The notes under the pieces: generated by a model
The model's database searches: none
The model's input: the letters and a program-made list of their open reading frames with translations, nothing else
Told to the model about the DNA's origin: nothing
In this document: piece by piece, positions 10,274-16,346 of the stretch
Layout: each line of letters starts with the position of its first letter
Position numbering within the stretch: the stretch's first letter is position 1
Assembly (NCBI GenBank): GCA_963823665.1
Contig: CAWGMQ010000010.1
Span: forward strand, 704,001-768,000
Source of the DNA: an uncultured Planctomycetota bacterium
GTDB lineage: Bacteria; Planctomycetota; Planctomycetia; Isosphaerales; Isosphaeraceae
Direction: 5' to 3'
DNA: 64,000 nucleotides
Translations under genes and position numbers: made by a program

Positions 10274-11077
10274 TCATCGAGCGGACGTCAACAAGCTCCG
10301 GTCCACGTGTTTGGTCGAGAGGCTCTGCGCGTACGCTTTGAGTGCGCCCTTGACGGTCGAGCGAATCTCAGTGTGCTCGGCATCGACCCAGTATGCGTCG
10401 CCACTCGCGACCATGAACCGCGCCCGCGCTTCGTGGATGCCCTCGAACGCCGCAAGTGGGTTTTCGGCAGACAATGGTTTGGCGTGCTGTCCAGACGCCC
10501 GTATCCGCGCTTGGTGGCGGCCGACAAGTTGGTCAAAATCGGCGTCCATGTACAAGATCTCGTCGTACAATCCCGGCGTTCGCGATCCGATGGGGCGGTC
10601 GGACGTGACGAGGTATCGCCCGTTCTCCAGCTCCGTATAAAACACCGTCCCCCGGTTTCGGATTCCCGCAGTCGTTCCCCACCGGAACACAGCAAGGATC
10701 TCTCGAGAAGGAGAGACCAGGAGCGCACCATAGGTCTTGTAGATCCCACCCTTGGCATGTTTGAACAGAAGGGGCGCGGTGAAGCCAAGCCGAACGGCCG
10801 CGCGAATCTGAGGTGCGGGAAACGGGGAAGTTCCAGCCGCGGCGTAGGGATTTGTGTCGGACTCCGGATCGTCATGCGATCCGCGATCTGATCCAATTGC
10901 GCCGAGTTTTTGTCGCTCAGGATCGTCTAAGTCGGCCGATGCCAGAAACTTCACGGGACGCCGCTCAAGCAGAGAAGTCACGATGATCGCGACTCCGAGC
11001 GATACGTAGAGCCCGGCGGCCAAGAGCACAACGCCGAGGATGATTGTCTCGAGCCAACTCATGCGAAATCTCGACAA
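10274..11077 (-). CDS. hypothetical membrane-anchored protein
   Basis: 267-aa ORF with an N-terminal hydrophobic helix. Confidence 0.65.
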   Translation of the reverse strand: MSRFRMSWLETIILGVVLLAAGLYVSLGVAIIVTSLLERRPVKFLASADLDDPERQKLGAIGSDRGSHDDPESDTNPYAAAGTSPFPAPQIRAAVRLGFTAPLLFKHAKGGIYKTYGALLVSPSREILAVFRWGTTAGIRNRGTVFYTELENGRYLVTSDRPIGSRTPGLYDEILYMDADFDQLVGRHQARIRASGQHAKPLSAENPLAAFEGIHEARARFMVASGDAYWVDAEHTEIRSTVKGALKAYAQSLSTKHVDRSLLTSAR

Positions 11078-11252
11078 CGGGTATAGGGCAGGGGGCCTTC
11101 GCCCCGACCGATGCAGTCACGTGAGGTTCTCCCGCCGCTCTGGTCGCCGATTGTACTGGGCTTGCTCTGGAGCGGGCTATCCCCGATCATCGAGACCCTC
11201 GTAAAATCGAGGTTGGCCGGATCGAATTGAATGCCGTTTTGGACTGAATCGC

Positions 11253-11654
11253 GTGGACCGTCTGAACCGTTTCTTCACGAAGGAAAAGCCCGCACCAAGC
11301 TCCCTCGCGGATCTGGAAGCCATCTGGCAGGCGCGACGCGCGTACTGGGCGCGCAAGCTCGGCCGCATTCGGCTCGGCGTCGAGCCGATCGAGGAACAGC
11401 TCACTCGCTACCGTCGCGTGACCTGGATGCTGACGGCCGTGCCTGCATTCGTGAGCACGGTGATCTTCACCCTCTTGACCGTCTTCCGTCGGCCCGACAT
11501 TGGGGCCGTTGCCGCGGCCCTCTTATTCCTGCCGATCGTGGCGGGCGCATGGCTCGGTTATTTCCTGCTGCAAAGCAGAGCTCGGCGCTATCTGGTCGAG
11601 CTGGACGAATATGAGAACGCGAGGAACGGGCTTCTGTCCGACGCCGCTGAGTGA
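11253..11654 (+). CDS. hypothetical two-TM membrane protein
   Basis: 133-aa ORF with two hydrophobic segments. Confidence 0.65.
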   Translation: MDRLNRFFTKEKPAPSSLADLEAIWQARRAYWARKLGRIRLGVEPIEEQLTRYRRVTWMLTAVPAFVSTVIFTLLTVFRRPDIGAVAAALLFLPIVAGAWLGYFLLQSRARRYLVELDEYENARNGLLSDAAE

Positions 11655-11683
11655 CGGACTGAGGCTTTCGTCGCCTGAGGTGG

Positions 11684-11723
11684 AAAAACTCATGCCCCAG
11701 GGCGTTGCCGCCCTGGGGCATGA
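11684..11723 (-). terminator. intrinsic terminator of the ECF sigma transcript
   Basis: Perfect stem CATGCCCCAGGGCG/CGCCCTGGGGCATG followed on the minus strand by AGTTTTT, just after the sigma stop codon. Confidence 0.75.
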
Positions 11724-11730
11724 TGATCCG

Positions 11731-12417
11731 CTACCACGCGGAGGCTTCCGAGGCCCCCGCGCCGACGAGCTCGAGCTCGTCTTCATTATCACGGCAGGTG
11801 CCGGAGTCGCACCATTCGAGCGGGTCAGCGACCGAGGTCTCGAGCTCGACCTTGAGCCGCTTCCGCGCCGTGTGCAGCCGCCGCTTGACGGTGCCCAGGG
11901 GCACGTCGAGCAGCTCGGCGATCTCGACGAGCGAGTGGCCGCGGATGTAGAACGCGTCGAGCGCCTCGCGATCCATCGACTTGAGGCGTCCGAGCGCCGC
12001 CCACACGTGCTCGGCCCGCTCGCGATCAATCAACTGATCGAGCGGCTCGTCGCTCTCGAGCGAGGCCCCTTCGAGAACACCGGCCTCGACCGAAGGCGGA
12101 GCCACCCGGCGCGTGGCGCGGTTGATCGCCATACGCACCGTGACCTGGCGCAGCCAGCCGGCGAACCGCTCCGGCTCGCGCAACTGCGTGATCCGCTCGA
12201 GCACGTGCAGGAAGACTTCCTGCGTCAGCTCGAGCGCATCGCTGGGGTTGCCCAGCCGGCGCAGCGCGATGGCGTAGACCGTCGGCTGGAACTGCTCGAC
12301 CAGGGAGCCAAACGCGTCGCGGTCGCCCGCTTGCGCCTGGCGGACGAGCACCGCCAGCTCGGCCCAGGCCGTGACATCCCGATCCAGAATCGTCGACGTG
12401 AGGAGCACTTGATCCAC
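11731..12417 (-). CDS. ECF sigma-70 factor (no anti-sigma gene nearby)
   Basis: LVRQAQAGDRDAFGSLVEQFQ, DALELTQEVF, FAGWLRQVTVRMAIN, SLVEIAELLDVPLGTVKRRLHTARKRLK. Confidence 0.92.
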   Translation of the reverse strand: MDQVLLTSTILDRDVTAWAELAVLVRQAQAGDRDAFGSLVEQFQPTVYAIALRRLGNPSDALELTQEVFLHVLERITQLREPERFAGWLRQVTVRMAINRATRRVAPPSVEAGVLEGASLESDEPLDQLIDRERAEHVWAALGRLKSMDREALDAFYIRGHSLVEIAELLDVPLGTVKRRLHTARKRLKVELETSVADPLEWCDSGTCRDNEDELELVGAGASEASAW

Positions 12418-12429
12418 CTTCCCCGCCAG

Positions 12430-13666
12430 GGGTTCTCCCGCTTCTTCCGCCGCAAGTCCGGCTTCTCGTGCCGGATTGAAAATGGGCGGAAAAGCGTGGC
12501 CTCATGAACGTCGTCACGCTCGGCGCTTGATTGATCTTGATCACGCTTTGATGTGATGCTCGCCGGATCGACCGATCCGGAAAACACCAGCATCGAGATC
12601 CGCGTGGGATCAACGGCGCGGCGACTGTTGCGACGGCGCGTGTGCGGTGGCCAATTCATGCCCAGAAGGTCGGAGATCCGGTTCCAGGCCAGCCGCACGA
12701 AACCGATGGTTCGAATCCGTCTGTTGCCTTGGATCTTCGAAGGTTGAATCAAGCGGGATGACCCAGGCCCTTAGCGCAAGGACTTGGGGCTGCTTGCGAG
12801 CCACCTTCTTGCGATCACTCAAGCGGACGGAATCGGGCGATCGGTACTCACTTTCCGACGGTTGTTGCTCTCGCCAGGGCCGAGCTTGCTAAGCGGGCTC
12901 GACGACGGGCGGTGCGATCGCGATCGGTGGCGTTACTCGCAGCCACCGCGTCGCGCTATCGCCTGGCATTCCAGGCCGCGCCTCGCGGTGTTCCCGACGC
13001 AATTCGGTAGCGTCGGGAAGCGGGTAACTCGATCGTCCGGTCGCGGTTCGCACGTGTCGGCGAGGTCTGCCGGCCTCGGATCCGTCACGTCGCAACCTTC
13101 AACCGCCCAGCCGCCTTGTTGCCACATCGCGCAACTCGGTTGCTGGACCTGAACCGGGGAAATTGAGCCGGGAATGGACGGCATTCCTGGTTTCGATTTG
13201 GGTTTCGAAAAGGAATACTGCACCACTCCCTCACGCATGACGTCATGATGGGAGTTAAGGATGTATAGGGTCTGGCCATCAAGGTTGACGTCCGCAATAG
13301 CGGCGCGCGACCGCGTCCCGAGATTCAGCCCGTTGGAAAGTACCAAGGCCGACAGCGTCAGGTTCTTGCGGCTCAACATGGCTATGACCCTCACATCCGC
13401 CTGAAGGGGCGGGATCGTGTGATGACGCAACAGCCGAGCTCCAGAATGGAGCGAGCGGCCGTCGCATCATGGGGATTTGGGCGACTTAACGCCCTGGCGA
13501 TTACCGAGTCATGGGCTCCGTTCTGGCTCCCGAGACATCGATGCGACCGGGCAACGCGCCCGATCTTCCAGAACCCAGGCCAATCGGCCTGGGATACCAG
13601 GTGGTCGATTGCCGTCGGTTCGCGGGTGCTCTGCACCCAGTCGCAGCACGCGCCACCTAGTGGTAC
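12430..13666 (+). ncRNA. candidate large (~1.2 kb) highly structured non-coding RNA
   Basis: No credible ORF; more than 20 local and long-range helices (e.g. 12627-12635/13088-13096, 12702-12726/12820-12846, 13268-13279/13378-13390, 13461-13468/13540-13547); the wobble pairs found are G-T on the + strand. Confidence 0.65.
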
Positions 13667-13668
13667 CG

Positions 13669-13700
13669 AGTATAGACATCCTATCGCCGTTTTGTGTTCG
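13669..13700 (-). promoter_or_regulatory. putative ECF-type promoter, overlapping a TATACT -10-like hexamer
   Basis: Minus strand CGAACAC-N16-GTCTAT matches GAAC-N16-GTCTA ECF geometry and points through the structured region toward the ECF gene. Confidence 0.45.
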
Positions 13701-15195
13701 CGCGAAATTCCAAAAAATCGGATTTTCCGTTTTCGGGACGTTCCGAATTTGACGTGCGACGGTCAGTTTCGGCCCTTCGTGCACGACCTCAAAGCCTTGG
13801 TCCAGCAACACTTTGAGAAGAGGATAATCGTTTCGGACGAAGAGCCAGCGGATTCCGGGATCGAGTTCGGGATAGCGCATCGGCAGGTTCCAGTTCACGA
13901 GGTAGCCGTAGAGTCGCCGGCGGGACGAAAGTGACGCGGAGACCAGATGGTCAGCGAGCACCCCATCGTCGGGGCCGACCTGTTCGATCGATCGCCAGAG
14001 CTCGGCGGCTTCGCCCGCGGCGATTGGAATCGGGATGCGGTCCATCCGCGACTTCATGGCGTACGTGCCTGCGGCGCCCGAGGCGCAGAGTATCGCCCAG
14101 GCCAGCGCGGCCCACATGACGCCGCTGCGGCGCTTGAGGATCCAGGTTCCCGCTCTCGCGTAGCCGATCAGCCCCGCCGCGAGCACAAGCGCGGTCATGG
14201 GAAGAACGTAGCGCACGTGGTGCCAGTCGGCGGTCGAGAGTGAATCGATCGACCACTCGCCGCTGCACGGGCCCCAGATCCACGGCAGCGCAAGGATCGC
14301 GACCCGTGGCGCGAAGCAGGCCAGAATCGTCCACATCCCCAGGCCGTACGCGAGGGCTTCGAGCGACGTGTGAAGCGTGGCGGGCAGCGCGGCCTTCTTG
14401 ACCAGGAACTGCTGGATGTAGAACGCGGGCGCGTTGCTGCCCACAACAAACCGCAGGTAACCGAGAAATCCAAAGAACAGCCATGAAAGTCCGGCAAACA
14501 CGATGACGTGTCGCCATCGCAGCGTCACGCGTGAGCGGCTCGGGCACGCGCGGAGGGATCAAGGCGAACGTCGCGGCCATGACGGCGAATTCCTGGCGGC
14601 AGGCGAGCATCCCCGCGATTCCAAAAATCGCTAGCGGTGCCGACCGGCTCCGAACCCCCTGAACGGCCCACACCACGAAGGGAAGGGCGAGTTGAAGCTC
14701 GCGGAAATCGTTGAGGGCGAGCGGCCAGAGCAGGGGGGTGAGCGGGACGATCGCTGCGGCAGAGACGCCGAGCCATCGCGAGCCCGACTCGGAGCGCACC
14801 AGCGTGTAAGCCGCTGGAACGACCAACCAGAACATGATGTTCTGGATGATCAGGAGCGTGCGCGGGTCTGGGAACAGGCGGTAGACCGGTGCCAGTGCAA
14901 AGCGAATCGGCGCCAGGTAATTCATCTTCCAGACCGACGGCCCTTCCTCGGCGTATCGGGACAAGGGCCGGACTGTTATCTCACGATCTCCGCAGGTGAG
15001 CGCCCAGAACCACTGGTTGTAGTAAGCCAGGTCCCAGGCCCACCCACTGCGGAATTCGTGGTAGCGATTGAGCGACTCACGCGCCGAGATGAGCGTCATC
15101 GCCACGGTGATTGTGGCGACGATCAGCCAGCAAATCGCTCCGGGGCGACGATCATTCGACGCATCGCGCACGGCTTGGGCAGCCTGTTCCAGCAC
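13681..15195 (-). CDS. DUF2079-like polytopic membrane protein (GT-C-like glycosyltransferase); frameshifts at ~14527 and probably ~13730
   Basis: WDLAYYNQWFW, NDFRELQLALPF, LACRQEFA, HHVRY and many TM helices. The 3' end is uncertain: a shifted frame stops at 13681, the ORF track runs to 13509. Confidence 0.7.
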
Positions 15196-15201
15196 GATTG
15201 A

Positions 15202-15223
15202 GTAGGTCAGGCCTTAGCCTGAC
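15202..15223. repeat. GTAG-type REP-like palindrome
   Basis: GTAGGTCAGGCCTTAGCCTGAC. Confidence 0.7.
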
Positions 15224-15259
15224 GTTCAGGTCATTGCACGAACGCGAGCCGCGTTCCGC

Positions 15260-15349
15260 TACGCAAGAAAACAAGCACTTTCGCGGAGCGAAAGGCGACT
15301 CTGATACGCGAGAAAACAAGCACTTTCGCGGAGCGAAAGGCGACTCTGG
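15260..15349. repeat. two tandem 45-bp units, each with a CTTTCGCGGAGCGAAAG hairpin
   Basis: TACGC(A/G)AGAAAACAAGCACTTTCGCGGAGCGAAAGGCGACTCTG repeated head to tail. Confidence 0.85.
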
Positions 15350-15356
15350 TTACCGA

Positions 15357-16346
15357 CTAGCCCCGGCCCATTGGCTTTGACGCCACGGAATTCACTGGGT
15401 TCCTTGGCGCCTCGCCCAGCAGGATGCGCCGGGTTTCCTCGGCGGTCTTGGTCCGCAGCTCGTTGTAGCCTTCGACGCTGTAGAATGCCGTGTGGGGCGT
15501 GAGCAGCACCTTTGGATGGTTTCGCAGCCGATCGTAATCGAGCGGCTCGCGCTCGATCACGTCCAGTCCTGCGGCGGCGAGATGGCCGCTGTCGAGGGCG
15601 TCAAGCAAAGCGGTTTCCTCGATGATCGGGCCGCGCGCCGTGTTGATCAGGATCGCGCCCGGTTTCATCCGGGCGATCGTTGTCGCATTGACCAGATGCT
15701 TGGAATTCGCATCGAGGTAGCAGTGCAGGCTCACGAAGTGGCTCTGCTCGAGCAGGTCATCGAGCGCATAAACCCGGCGGATTCCGAGCGCCTTGTCCAT
15801 GCCCTGCCGCAGATAGGGATCGTAGAAGACCACGTCGAGCCCGAACGCCTTCGCTCGCAGCGCCGCTGCGGTTCCGATCCGGCCGCAGCCCACCACGCCG
15901 AACGTCTTGCCGCGGAGCCGGGGTGCTCCCAGAGCCGTGCGATAATCCCAGTTGCCATCGCGGATCGCCTGATGCGAGATGACCAGGCGGCGCACAAGTG
16001 CCAGCAGGAACATGATCGCGTGATCGGCGACTTCTTCGGTGCCGTAGTCGGGCACGTTGCACACGACCACGCCGTGGCGGCTCGCCGATTCGACGTCCAC
16101 GTTGTTGAAGCCCACCCCGGCACGGACGACGCCACGGCAGCGAGGTGCGCGGGAGAAGCTCAGCTCGCTCAGAATCGATAGGTCATGAAAGAGCATGATC
16201 GCATCAGCCTGCGGGAGGAACCTCTCGAGCTGAGATTCCTCGGTCGCGTGGGCCATCACGAGCTGCGCGAGATCGCCGAGAACTGCCGATTCAATGGAAG
16301 TCTCGTCGAGGAAGTCGGCGATGAGGACGTTGAAGCGTTTTGACAT
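15357..16346 (-). CDS. D-isomer-specific 2-hydroxyacid dehydrogenase (CtBP-like)
   Basis: RAGVGFNNVD, NVPDYGTEEVADHA, GCGRIG, INTARG, LDVIEREP, TPHTAFYS. Confidence 0.92.
   Translation of the reverse strand: MSKRFNVLIADFLDETSIESAVLGDLAQLVMAHATEESQLERFLPQADAIMLFHDLSILSELSFSRAPRCRGVVRAGVGFNNVDVESASRHGVVVCNVPDYGTEEVADHAIMFLLALVRRLVISHQAIRDGNWDYRTALGAPRLRGKTFGVVGCGRIGTAAALRAKAFGLDVVFYDPYLRQGMDKALGIRRVYALDDLLEQSHFVSLHCYLDANSKHLVNATTIARMKPGAILINTARGPIIEETALLDALDSGHLAAAGLDVIEREPLDYDRLRNHPKVLLTPHTAFYSVEGYNELRTKTAEETRRILLGEAPRNPVNSVASKPMGRG

Follow-up and report, generated by a model that had tools for sequence, protein, structure and literature searches.

We analyzed positions 12430 to 13666 of a 64,000-nucleotide (nt) stretch of DNA (the window; positions 704001 to 768000 of contig CAWGMQ010000010.1) from the 16.46-Mb genome of an uncultured planctomycete of the family Isosphaeraceae. 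This interval precedes a gene for an extracytoplasmic function (ECF) sigma factor, and all features discussed are on the minus strand of the window unless marked otherwise. We conclude that the interval is a real, conserved, and undescribed feature, which we class as a structured regulatory leader with an unusual long open reading frame (ORF), which we call ORF-X, that is open but unconstrained. On the minus strand, a presumed ECF-type promoter is followed by about 280 nt of structured leader, then by ORF-X, a spacer of about 400 to 430 nt, and the sigma gene. The reading that we favor, and to which we give about an even chance, is that the interval is a structured leader that is translated, acts in cis, and belongs to an autoregulated, translation-gated ECF sigma operon conserved across the Isosphaeraceae. 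Our data show conservation, synteny, covariation, maintenance of the frame, a lack of constraint on codons, and occurrence in RNA libraries; the identity of the promoter, cotranscription with sigma, polarity, and the nature of the signal are inferred.

A DNA search with the interval returned a single match in its own genome, matches in 17 of 24 other genomes of the family, and, among 16 genomes of the class that lie outside the family, none. When positions 13000 to 13700 served as the query, 81 of 121 Isosphaeraceae genomes, representing 38 of 53 genera, carried the core at one locus per genome, as did 26 of the 47 family genomes that are at least 90% complete. Conservation is highest between about −37 and +78 relative to an ATG at 13379. 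An ortholog of the sigma gene lies downstream on the same strand at 78 of the 81 loci; two of the other three loci are at a contig end, and the third (L080) showed no match. This ortholog is single copy and occurs in 100 of the 121 genomes. Among 15 sigma loci lacking a BLAST match to the core, 13 still carry a diverged Shine-Dalgarno (SD)/ATG motif followed by an ORF of 112 to 168 codons. Most of these 13 ORFs begin with a related peptide (ML.RTN..LSA ... LNLGTRS), and 10 of the 13 loci have GAAC-N17-TGTC 178 to 299 nt upstream of the ATG. The 81 core loci and the 13 diverged copies together place the module beside at least 94 of the 100 sigma orthologs.

A preliminary description of the interval, made from its letters, had proposed comparing its folding energy with that of shuffled sequence, searching Rfam, and looking for conservation and covariation at orthologous loci. 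We carried out all three. Folding z-scores were calculated by sub-region against 30 dinucleotide shuffles each. The leader and 5′ part of the ORF (13205 to 13660) reached z = −7.2 on the minus (sense) strand and −3.2 on the plus strand; the 3′ part of the ORF (12849 to 13204) gave −3.2 (sense) and −6.0 (plus), and the spacer (12418 to 12848) gave −2.2 (sense) and −3.6 (plus). Six 456-nt coding segments that served as controls, folded on both strands, ranged from +0.64 to −2.9. On the sense strand, then, about 460 of the 1,237 nt fold clearly beyond the controls, and the remainder is marginal. The preliminary description had also seen a nearly continuous fold, and this view clearly holds for the leader and the 5′ part of the ORF and marginally elsewhere. 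The inverted repeats that it named are present, both the local ones (at 12563, 12881, 12991, 13168, 13225, 13437, 13574, and 13624) and the long-range pairs (12627/13088, 13268/13378, and 13461/13540).

Covariation was counted in two modules. Module A consists of the leader hairpins P1 to P3 and was counted on a 57-sequence MAFFT alignment, with shuffled alignments and slid pairing partners as controls. Of two RNAalifold runs, one predicted P1 only; P2 and P3 came from the second and were then counted in the alignment. In this module 88.4% of the cells are paired, versus 31.6 to 50.9% with slid partners, and 18 of its 28 pairs change on both sides, a number reached by none of 500 shuffles. Its covariation score is 0.226, compared with 0.140 for shuffled and 0.056 to 0.096 for slid controls. 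P1 (helix 2 of the module) is 96.8% paired, and five of its six pairs change on both sides, with the outer pair 5-34 found as GC in 21 sequences, AU in 20, and GU in 7. P2 (helices 3 and 4) is 84% and 93% paired (pair 39-79, UG:37, AU:9, UA:4), and P3 (helix 5) is 92% paired (pair 102-116, AU:44, GC:9; pair 99-119, GC:35, AU:9). Across the leader alignment, conserved blocks alternate with variable stretches in which the hairpins differ by lineage. A covariance model of module A found one match in each of 52 of the 121 family genomes, so these hairpins are less widely distributed than the core, and it found none in 150 other Planctomycetota genomes.

Module B extends from 62 nt before the ATG to 170 nt after it and was counted on 81 sequences. 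Its cells are 88.0% paired, versus 32.6 to 39.3% with slid partners, and it holds 104 double-change cells, versus 59.6 ± 5.5 in shuffled alignments, again reached by 0 of 500 shuffles. Helix 1, in which an anti-SD segment pairs as UCAC/GUGA, is 82.7% paired (pair 29-66, AU:32, GC:12, GU:12, other:25), and helix 2, an invariant CCGCC/GGCGG hairpin, is 97.5% paired. Helices 3 and 4 pair the SD sequence (GGG-U-C) and GCCAUGU with positions +95 to +110 of ORF-X; they are 90% and 83.5% paired, and pair 78-213 is CG in 36 sequences, UA in 18, and UG in 6. The module also holds inner helices within the ORF. The 13268/13378 helix named in the preliminary description corresponds to the pairing of helices 3 and 4 and is among the covarying helices. 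G-U pairs are frequent, which fits a fold on the minus strand. These results show that covarying, conserved RNA structure is present in two modules. At the level of base pairing it shows compensatory changes and covers both the SD sequence GUGAGGGU and the start codon; an effect on translation is predicted. The proposal of a structured RNA tied to the sigma gene is borne out by this covariation and by the 78 of 81 loci with sigma downstream, except that several of the hairpins listed for it (13437, 13574, and 13624) fall in stretches unconserved between genera. A stand-alone noncoding RNA of about 1.2 kb in the class of GOLLD, ROOL, and OLE, as first suggested, does not agree with the extent of the supported fold, which takes in about 460 nt, made up of the leader together with the initial ~170 nt of the ORF.

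A search of positions 11000 to 15500 against Rfam 15 (cmscan, E ≤ 10) returned three weak matches to microRNA models, none of them inside 12418 to 13700. RNase P, transfer-messenger RNA (tmRNA), and 6S RNA were considered as identities for the interval and rejected; RNase P, tmRNA, and the best 6S candidate all map to other places in the genome. That 6S candidate (C6:1558908-1559072) is full length and scores 35 bits, under the 46.4-bit cut-off. The genome has three full-length tmRNA matches over the Rfam cut-off, at C10:360462-360829 (155 bits), C10:422392-422760 (148 bits), and C8:2039527-2039897 (137 bits). In most bacteria ssrA is present only once.

The preliminary description had found no credible ORF in the interval, and the comparison with relatives overturns this. 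The ORF list for the window holds a 165-amino-acid (aa) ORF at 12933 to 13430, within which the conserved ATG at 13379 follows a GAGGG SD sequence. The motif GGCGGA.G.GAGGG...ATG occurs at 81 of 81 loci and is followed by nearly invariant nucleotides. From this ATG the frame is open for at least 120 codons at 70 of 80 loci. The first stop codon falls at or past codon 130 at 67 of 79 loci, versus 0 and 15 of 79 in the other frames. Positions +181 to +450, past the conserved fold, are free of stops at 62 of 81 loci (16 and 29 in the other two frames) and hold 33 stops in total (121 and 97 in the other frames). Indels were compared in 14 close pairs, the larger set of all pairs of at least 78% identity being uninformative from alignment noise; 10 of 21 indels inside ORF-X are multiples of 3, versus 6 of 77 in the spacer. 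Public gene calls include 287 ORF-X proteins, and 342 representatives of 50%-identity clusters are called hypothetical protein. Most of the representatives are 140 to 200 aa long, most are matched from residue 1, and none has a Pfam domain or a fusion. These patterns indicate that the frame of ORF-X is under selection to stay open. Few stops and frame-preserving indels are what a translated ORF should show, with exceptions in low-completeness assemblies and in the window, and translation is predicted.

The peptide behaves differently. Divergence in ORF-X at codon positions 1, 2, and 3 is 0.404, 0.383, and 0.432. The ratio of nonsynonymous to synonymous substitution rates (dN/dS) is 0.41 to 1.04 over 16 pairs and about 0.6 to 1 in general; in the close pair L015/L021 it is 0.97, with 20, 14, and 12 differences by codon position. 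The G+C content at third positions is not elevated in the distal two-thirds of ORF-X. An excess of synonymous or third-position changes, the mark of purifying selection on a protein, was not found. In the first 170 nt from the ATG, column entropy is 0.51 to 0.62 at paired positions and 1.05 to 1.16 at unpaired positions, at all three codon positions. Leucine-to-phenylalanine changes that accompany serine-to-asparagine changes are the two sides of one RNA helix (pair 171-198, CG:51, UA:10). The apparent conservation of the C terminus (..IGK*, ..SGG*) arises because it translates a conserved nucleotide block, CGG(R)nGUGAG.YRCCGA. Taken together, these comparisons of sequence indicate that the ORF-X peptide is not detectably selected and that RNA pairing, rather than codons, has shaped the sequence.

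This pattern bears on the possibility that ORF-X encodes the missing anti-sigma factor or another regulator, a small, disordered, fast-evolving, cotranscribed protein whose translation the RNA structure would only tune. Its location in the sigma operon at 78 of 81 loci and the selection on its frame fit such a role. As the preliminary description had stated, no other anti-sigma factor is recognizable here: ORF-X has no Pfam or NCBIfam match, and the gene after sigma is convergent. Disordered anti-sigma factors such as FlgM exist, and the codons for NLGTRS show some synonymous variation at third positions that are unpaired (GGG/GGC/GGA/GGT and AAC/AAT). We nevertheless consider this explanation unlikely. 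The dN/dS values stay at about 0.6 to 1 even in close pairs, conservation of the “N-terminal domain” follows RNA pairing and not codon position, and the “tail” is the RNA block. ORF-X matches no Pfam family beyond a chance GPS match (E = 0.033), three orthologs match none in NCBIfam, and none of the 342 cluster representatives belongs to a family. A recognizable anti-sigma domain (ZAS, RskA, NepR, or similar) or a helical sigma-binding fold was not found. We rejected ORF-X as a folded protein, since AlphaFold, given 67 sequences, predicted only a 4-residue helix (predicted local distance difference test, 57.1; predicted template modeling score, 0.17). Its recognition in the protein atlas (1350) is below the level reached by 91 of 100 proteins of known families, with no usable match. 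The predicted complex of ORF-X residues 1 to 80 with sigma scored 0.02, which counts neither for nor against binding.

RNA evidence came from three soil metatranscriptome runs (X6, X9, and X13, from two studies), compared with a DNA run (X3) over 11731 to 13720 with a likeness of at least 88%; each run contains at most 19% of the sampled words. Summed contig word depth over 13272 to 13338 was 808 in X6, 360 in X9, and 30 in X13, with about 3.4 in X3; over 13339 to 13405 it was 223, 272, and 21, again with about 3.4 in X3; and over 13473 to 13539 it was 45, 97, and 10, with about 1.4 in X3. On the sigma gene (11731 to 12417) the three RNA runs gave 0 to 7.6, 0 to 3.3, and 0 to 2.5, and X3 gave up to 19.7. 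RNA contigs cover the leader at 13473 to 13606, and 12334 to 12735 and 13607 to 13720 are without RNA contig cover. These depths come from contigs of relatives (88 to 99% alike), are summed over organisms, carry neither strand nor ends, and cannot rank genes or parts of genes; as a lead, they suggest that RNA from the folded 5′ part greatly outnumbers the sigma mRNA.

The 5′ 400 to 450 nt could instead be a stand-alone, abundant trans-acting RNA, for example a partner of polymerase or of sigma, followed by or overlapping the ORF; this would be the idea of the preliminary description at a reduced size. The very high contig depth on 13272 to 13405 and on 13473 to 13606 in all three runs, with little on sigma, favors this, as do its single-copy occurrence throughout the family, its covariation, the z-score of the 5′ part, and its having no Rfam match. 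We think this reading quite unlikely. A purely noncoding RNA needs neither the SD sequence and ATG that are invariant at 81 of 81 loci nor a frame maintained for at least 100 codons past the conserved fold, no terminator-like site follows the folded part, and the summed depths are biased toward the most conserved segment. The cis-acting leader, the anti-sigma factor, and the trans-acting RNA are not mutually exclusive.

GAAC-N17-TGTC lies directly after the DUF2079 membrane protein gene at 73 of 81 loci, always with a spacing of exactly 17 nt, and mostly 230 to 360 nt upstream of the ORF-X ATG; one of the 73 (L026) is probably spurious. Most of these motifs are embedded in (T/C)GCGCGAAC...GATGTCTA with an AT-rich stretch ahead. 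The strict pattern has two sites in the 16.46-Mb genome, the one here and a probable chance site, and the reversed control has one. The motif resembles the ECF −35 “AAC” and −10 “GTC” pattern (GGAAC...GTC), and it is presumably an ECF-type promoter recognized by the operon's own sigma factor. No sigma-70-like promoter and no intrinsic-terminator-like site was found on either strand of 12300 to 13800, the range of the T-run-based terminator scan. The presumed ECF-type promoter upstream and the lack of a terminator-like site ahead of sigma suggest that the interval and sigma form one operon mRNA.

Downstream, the ORF-X stop codon of most relatives falls within the conserved block CGG(R)nGUGAG.YRCCGA; the stop is TGA in 59 of 68 ORFs. 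In seven loci (L057, L074, L075, L080, and L082 to L084) the block persists 10 to 20 nt past the stop, out of frame. The stop within it usually sits in a hairpin loop, and the small hairpins around the block differ between clades. The window differs from the same-genus locus L010 by 4 extra bases near ORF-X position 429 (L009 and L010 differ by a 4-nt gap). With these bases, near 12945 to 12951, ORF-X of the window stops at 12933 with a length of 148 codons and no longer reads into the ancestral stop block in frame. RNA contigs of relatives (X6 and X9) lack 3 + 1 nt at 12945/12951, and an independent DNA contig from X3 is without these deletions; the frameshift may thus be a true feature of this lineage rather than a fault of the assembly. 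The spacer is mostly 330 to 530 nt long in the 78 loci with sigma downstream. RNAalifold gave no consensus structure for a 66-locus spacer alignment, which is too gappy, though local conserved blocks and clade-specific hairpins are visible.

We propose that transcription would start at the promoter right after the DUF2079 gene, making the interval the 5′ two-thirds of the operon mRNA. The first ~450 nt would fold into P1 to P3 and a domain that locks the SD sequence and AUG of ORF-X through the upstream anti-SD segment and ORF-X codons ~30 to 37. In the folded state ORF-X would not be translated, and the untranslated ORF and the ~400-nt spacer would be exposed to premature termination or decay; a stable 5′ fragment would build up, and sigma output would stay low. 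Once the initiation helix is opened by some signal, be it temperature, a ligand, a protein, or a small RNA, ribosomes could pass through ORF-X, and their passage would carry transcription, or mRNA stability, on to sigma and close a positive autoregulatory loop. An RNA gate and not a protein anti-sigma factor would then hold sigma in check, and ORF-X would be kept open since ribosome passage, not its product, matters downstream. Tentatively, and with less confidence than in the reading above, we suggest that sigma is checked by its own ~1.25-kb operon RNA, an abundant, family-wide fold with a “dummy” frame of 150 to 190 codons that is selected only for being translated, and whose 5′ fold may also act in trans on polymerase or sigma.

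Several points weigh against the translated-leader reading. The number of module B pairs that change on both sides is not significant (18 versus 15.5; 81 of 500 shuffles), and many pairs never vary. The spacer shows conserved blocks but yielded no consensus structure. The RNA contigs give neither transcript ends, strand, nor cotranscription with sigma, and the drop in depth along ORF-X may partly mirror falling conservation, with a bias to the most conserved segment. The identity of the promoter depends on likeness to the ECF consensus, and nowhere else in the genome does the strict motif recur convincingly, so that no regulon supports it. Eleven of the 21 ORF-X indels do not preserve the frame; they cluster in five loci, L003/L014, L013, and L074/L076 (assemblies 54 to 81% complete), and in the window, and we have assumed that they are errors. 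The shortening of ORF-X by the frameshift in the window lineage, seen also in the independent DNA contig, means that its full length is dispensable. We know of no close precedent for a “regulatory ORF” of 150 to 190 codons.

Two further explanations fare worse. ORF-X could be an ordinary hypothetical-protein gene with long untranslated flanks, its hairpins being chance self-complementarity of G+C-rich DNA; public records do annotate it as a hypothetical protein, and the sense z-scores of the 3′ part of the ORF and of the spacer are near those of the coding controls. We hold this to be very improbable given the covariation beyond slid and shuffled controls, the z-score of the 5′ part, the flat divergence across codon positions, and noncoding blocks conserved across 38 genera. 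A degraded mobile element, which the preliminary description had named as a refuting case, or a pseudogene remnant is scarcely credible, even with ORF-X frameshifted near its 3′ end in the window and the neighboring DUF2079 gene split over two frames, because there is one copy per genome at a fixed syntenic position across the family, a single match in its own genome, and a conserved promoter, translation initiation region, and structure.

The gene at the end of the proposed operon is an ECF sigma factor gene, with sigma-70 regions 2 and 4 and an ECF-family profile: it matches Sigma70_r2 (PF04542, 3.9e-14), Sigma70_r4_2 (PF08281, 3.2e-10), and Sigma70_ECF (PF07638, 3.7e-08) in Pfam and TIGR02937 in NCBIfam (1.3e-26; 93.2 bits versus a cut-off of 42.9). 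Near its start, CCCC, GGGG(A)AGG, and GTG are almost invariant in the 66-locus alignment; the CCCC/GGGG pair is without variation and so is uninformative on pairing, either way. Because the GTG at 12408 to 12406 is invariant in the 66 aligned loci and stands 11 nt after the SD sequence GGGGAAGG, it is probably the true start of sigma, in place of the first GTG (12417) of the ORF list. All sigma orthologs in L005 to L034 have at their end an acidic stretch and then a conserved ..ELVGAG...W C terminus, about 35 residues past region 4, which could be a short regulatory extension. The gene 3′ of sigma is convergent, behind the palindromic hairpin at 11691 to 11722. This hairpin is a perfect 14-bp palindrome (z about −5) between the sigma stop codon and the convergent ORF and is likely a bidirectional terminator; the convergent ORF (133 aa; 11253 to 11654, plus strand) has two predicted membrane helices and no Pfam match. 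Upstream of the interval, on the same strand as sigma, is the DUF2079 gene (13509 to 15195), which in the window is split in two overlapping frames (13951 to 15195 and 13509 to 14528; junction near 14530). Its ortholog in L005 is one continuous frame, and the split is either a frameshift or an assembly indel. Coordinates are collected in Table 1.

Table 1. Features of the proposed sigma operon leader, listed from 5′ to 3′ on the minus strand (window coordinates)
Feature	Position	Strand	Remarks
ECF-type promoter-like motif	13673..13703	−	GCGCGAAC-N17-TGTCTA, AT-rich stretch upstream
5′ leader, ~280 nt	13380..13665	−	Start inferred from promoter position
Leader hairpin P1	13546..13564	−	CCGGGC...GCCCGG, covarying outer extension
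Leader hairpin P2	13503..13542	−	Long, irregular AUCGAG...CUCGGU; inner GGG/CCC and CC/GG
Leader hairpin P3	13478..13495	−	GGGACG...CGUCCC in most relatives; GGGCG...CGCCC here
ORF-X translation initiation region	13377..13425	−	Anti-SD (UCAU/UCAC), CCGCC/GGCGG hairpin, SD GUGAGGGU, AUG 13379
ORF-X	12933..13379	−	148 codons here, TAA stop 12935-12933; 150 to 190 codons in most relatives
Internal ORF-X segment (+90..+118) pairing with SD and AUG	13262..13290	−	Module B helices 3 and 4
Conserved block CGG(R)nGUGAG.YRCCGA	12836..12860	−	Holds ORF-X stop codon in most relatives (68 ORFs)
Spacer, ORF-X to sigma	12418..12835	−	Conserved blocks 12615-12650 and 12500-12524
Sigma translation initiation region	12406..12434	−	CCCC...GGGG hairpin overlapping SD GGGGAAGG; conserved GTG 12408-12406
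ECF sigma gene	11731..12417	−	Pfam and NCBIfam profiles

Among the signal-responsive transcription factors of bacteria, ECF sigma factors form the largest group, and the groups without a recognizable anti-sigma factor are an open problem. Here, a covarying fold that buries the start of a long ORF precedes sigma in essentially every genome having that sigma, which gives a model of RNA-level control of an ECF sigma factor that can be tested directly. ORF-X would be a clear case from nature of an ORF in which selection acts on translation itself and not on the product, and it is an annotation trap, as the 342 “hypothetical protein” clusters illustrate. The fold also provides a new RNA motif for Rfam from the Planctomycetota, from which, to our knowledge, few are known. 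If the 5′ fold is as abundant as the contigs suggest, it could serve as an activity marker for Isosphaeraceae in soil. We found no description of it in Rfam or in those parts of the literature on Isosphaeraceae ECF sigma factors, DUF2079, and structured RNA of Planctomycetes that were available to us, where only general motif surveys surfaced.

By search, the element belongs to no Rfam family and ORF-X to no known anti-sigma family. In size class and multihelix architecture the element is like GOLLD, ROOL, OLE, HEARO, and raiA, from which it differs in its SD sequence, ATG, and maintained frame, in its restriction to one family, and in having no Rfam match at E ≤ 10 within 12418 to 13700. Dual-function RNAs such as SgrS/SgrT, RNAIII/hld, and SR1/SR1P act by base pairing in trans and encode short functional peptides. 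The element shares with them a covarying structured RNA that also carries a frame, but it lies in cis ahead of the sigma gene and has no known target. The rpoE-rseABC and sigW-rsiW operons are autoregulated ECF sigma/anti-sigma operons, and the likeness to them is an ECF-type motif (GAAC...GTC) ahead of a sigma operon with a cotranscribed partner gene, here predicted. The differences are that sigma here is distal, behind ~1.25 kb of RNA, and that ORF-X matches no anti-sigma family and shows no protein-level constraint.

The tnaC-tnaA and mgtA/mgtCBR leaders work by leader-ORF attenuation with Rho-dependent polarity. An upstream frame, a long untranslated spacer, and a conserved stop context are common to them and to the present element, in which the translation status of the frame would, by analogy, set downstream expression; their leader ORFs have 10 to 30 codons, whereas ORF-X has 150 to 190. 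In the rpoH (sigma-32) mRNA thermosensor of Escherichia coli, the initiation region pairs with a segment about 100 nt inside its own coding region. The element resembles it in pairing a start site with an internal coding segment, in a structure largely within the ORF, and in posttranscriptional action, here predicted, in a stress sigma pathway. It differs in that the gated ORF is an upstream frame with an unconstrained peptide and not sigma itself, in its additional ~280-nt leader and ~400-nt spacer, and in having no sequence or Rfam relationship to rpoH. By analogy, then, the element would work most like the rpoH thermosensor combined with the leader-ORF attenuators of the tnaC and mgtA type, set inside an ECF operon.

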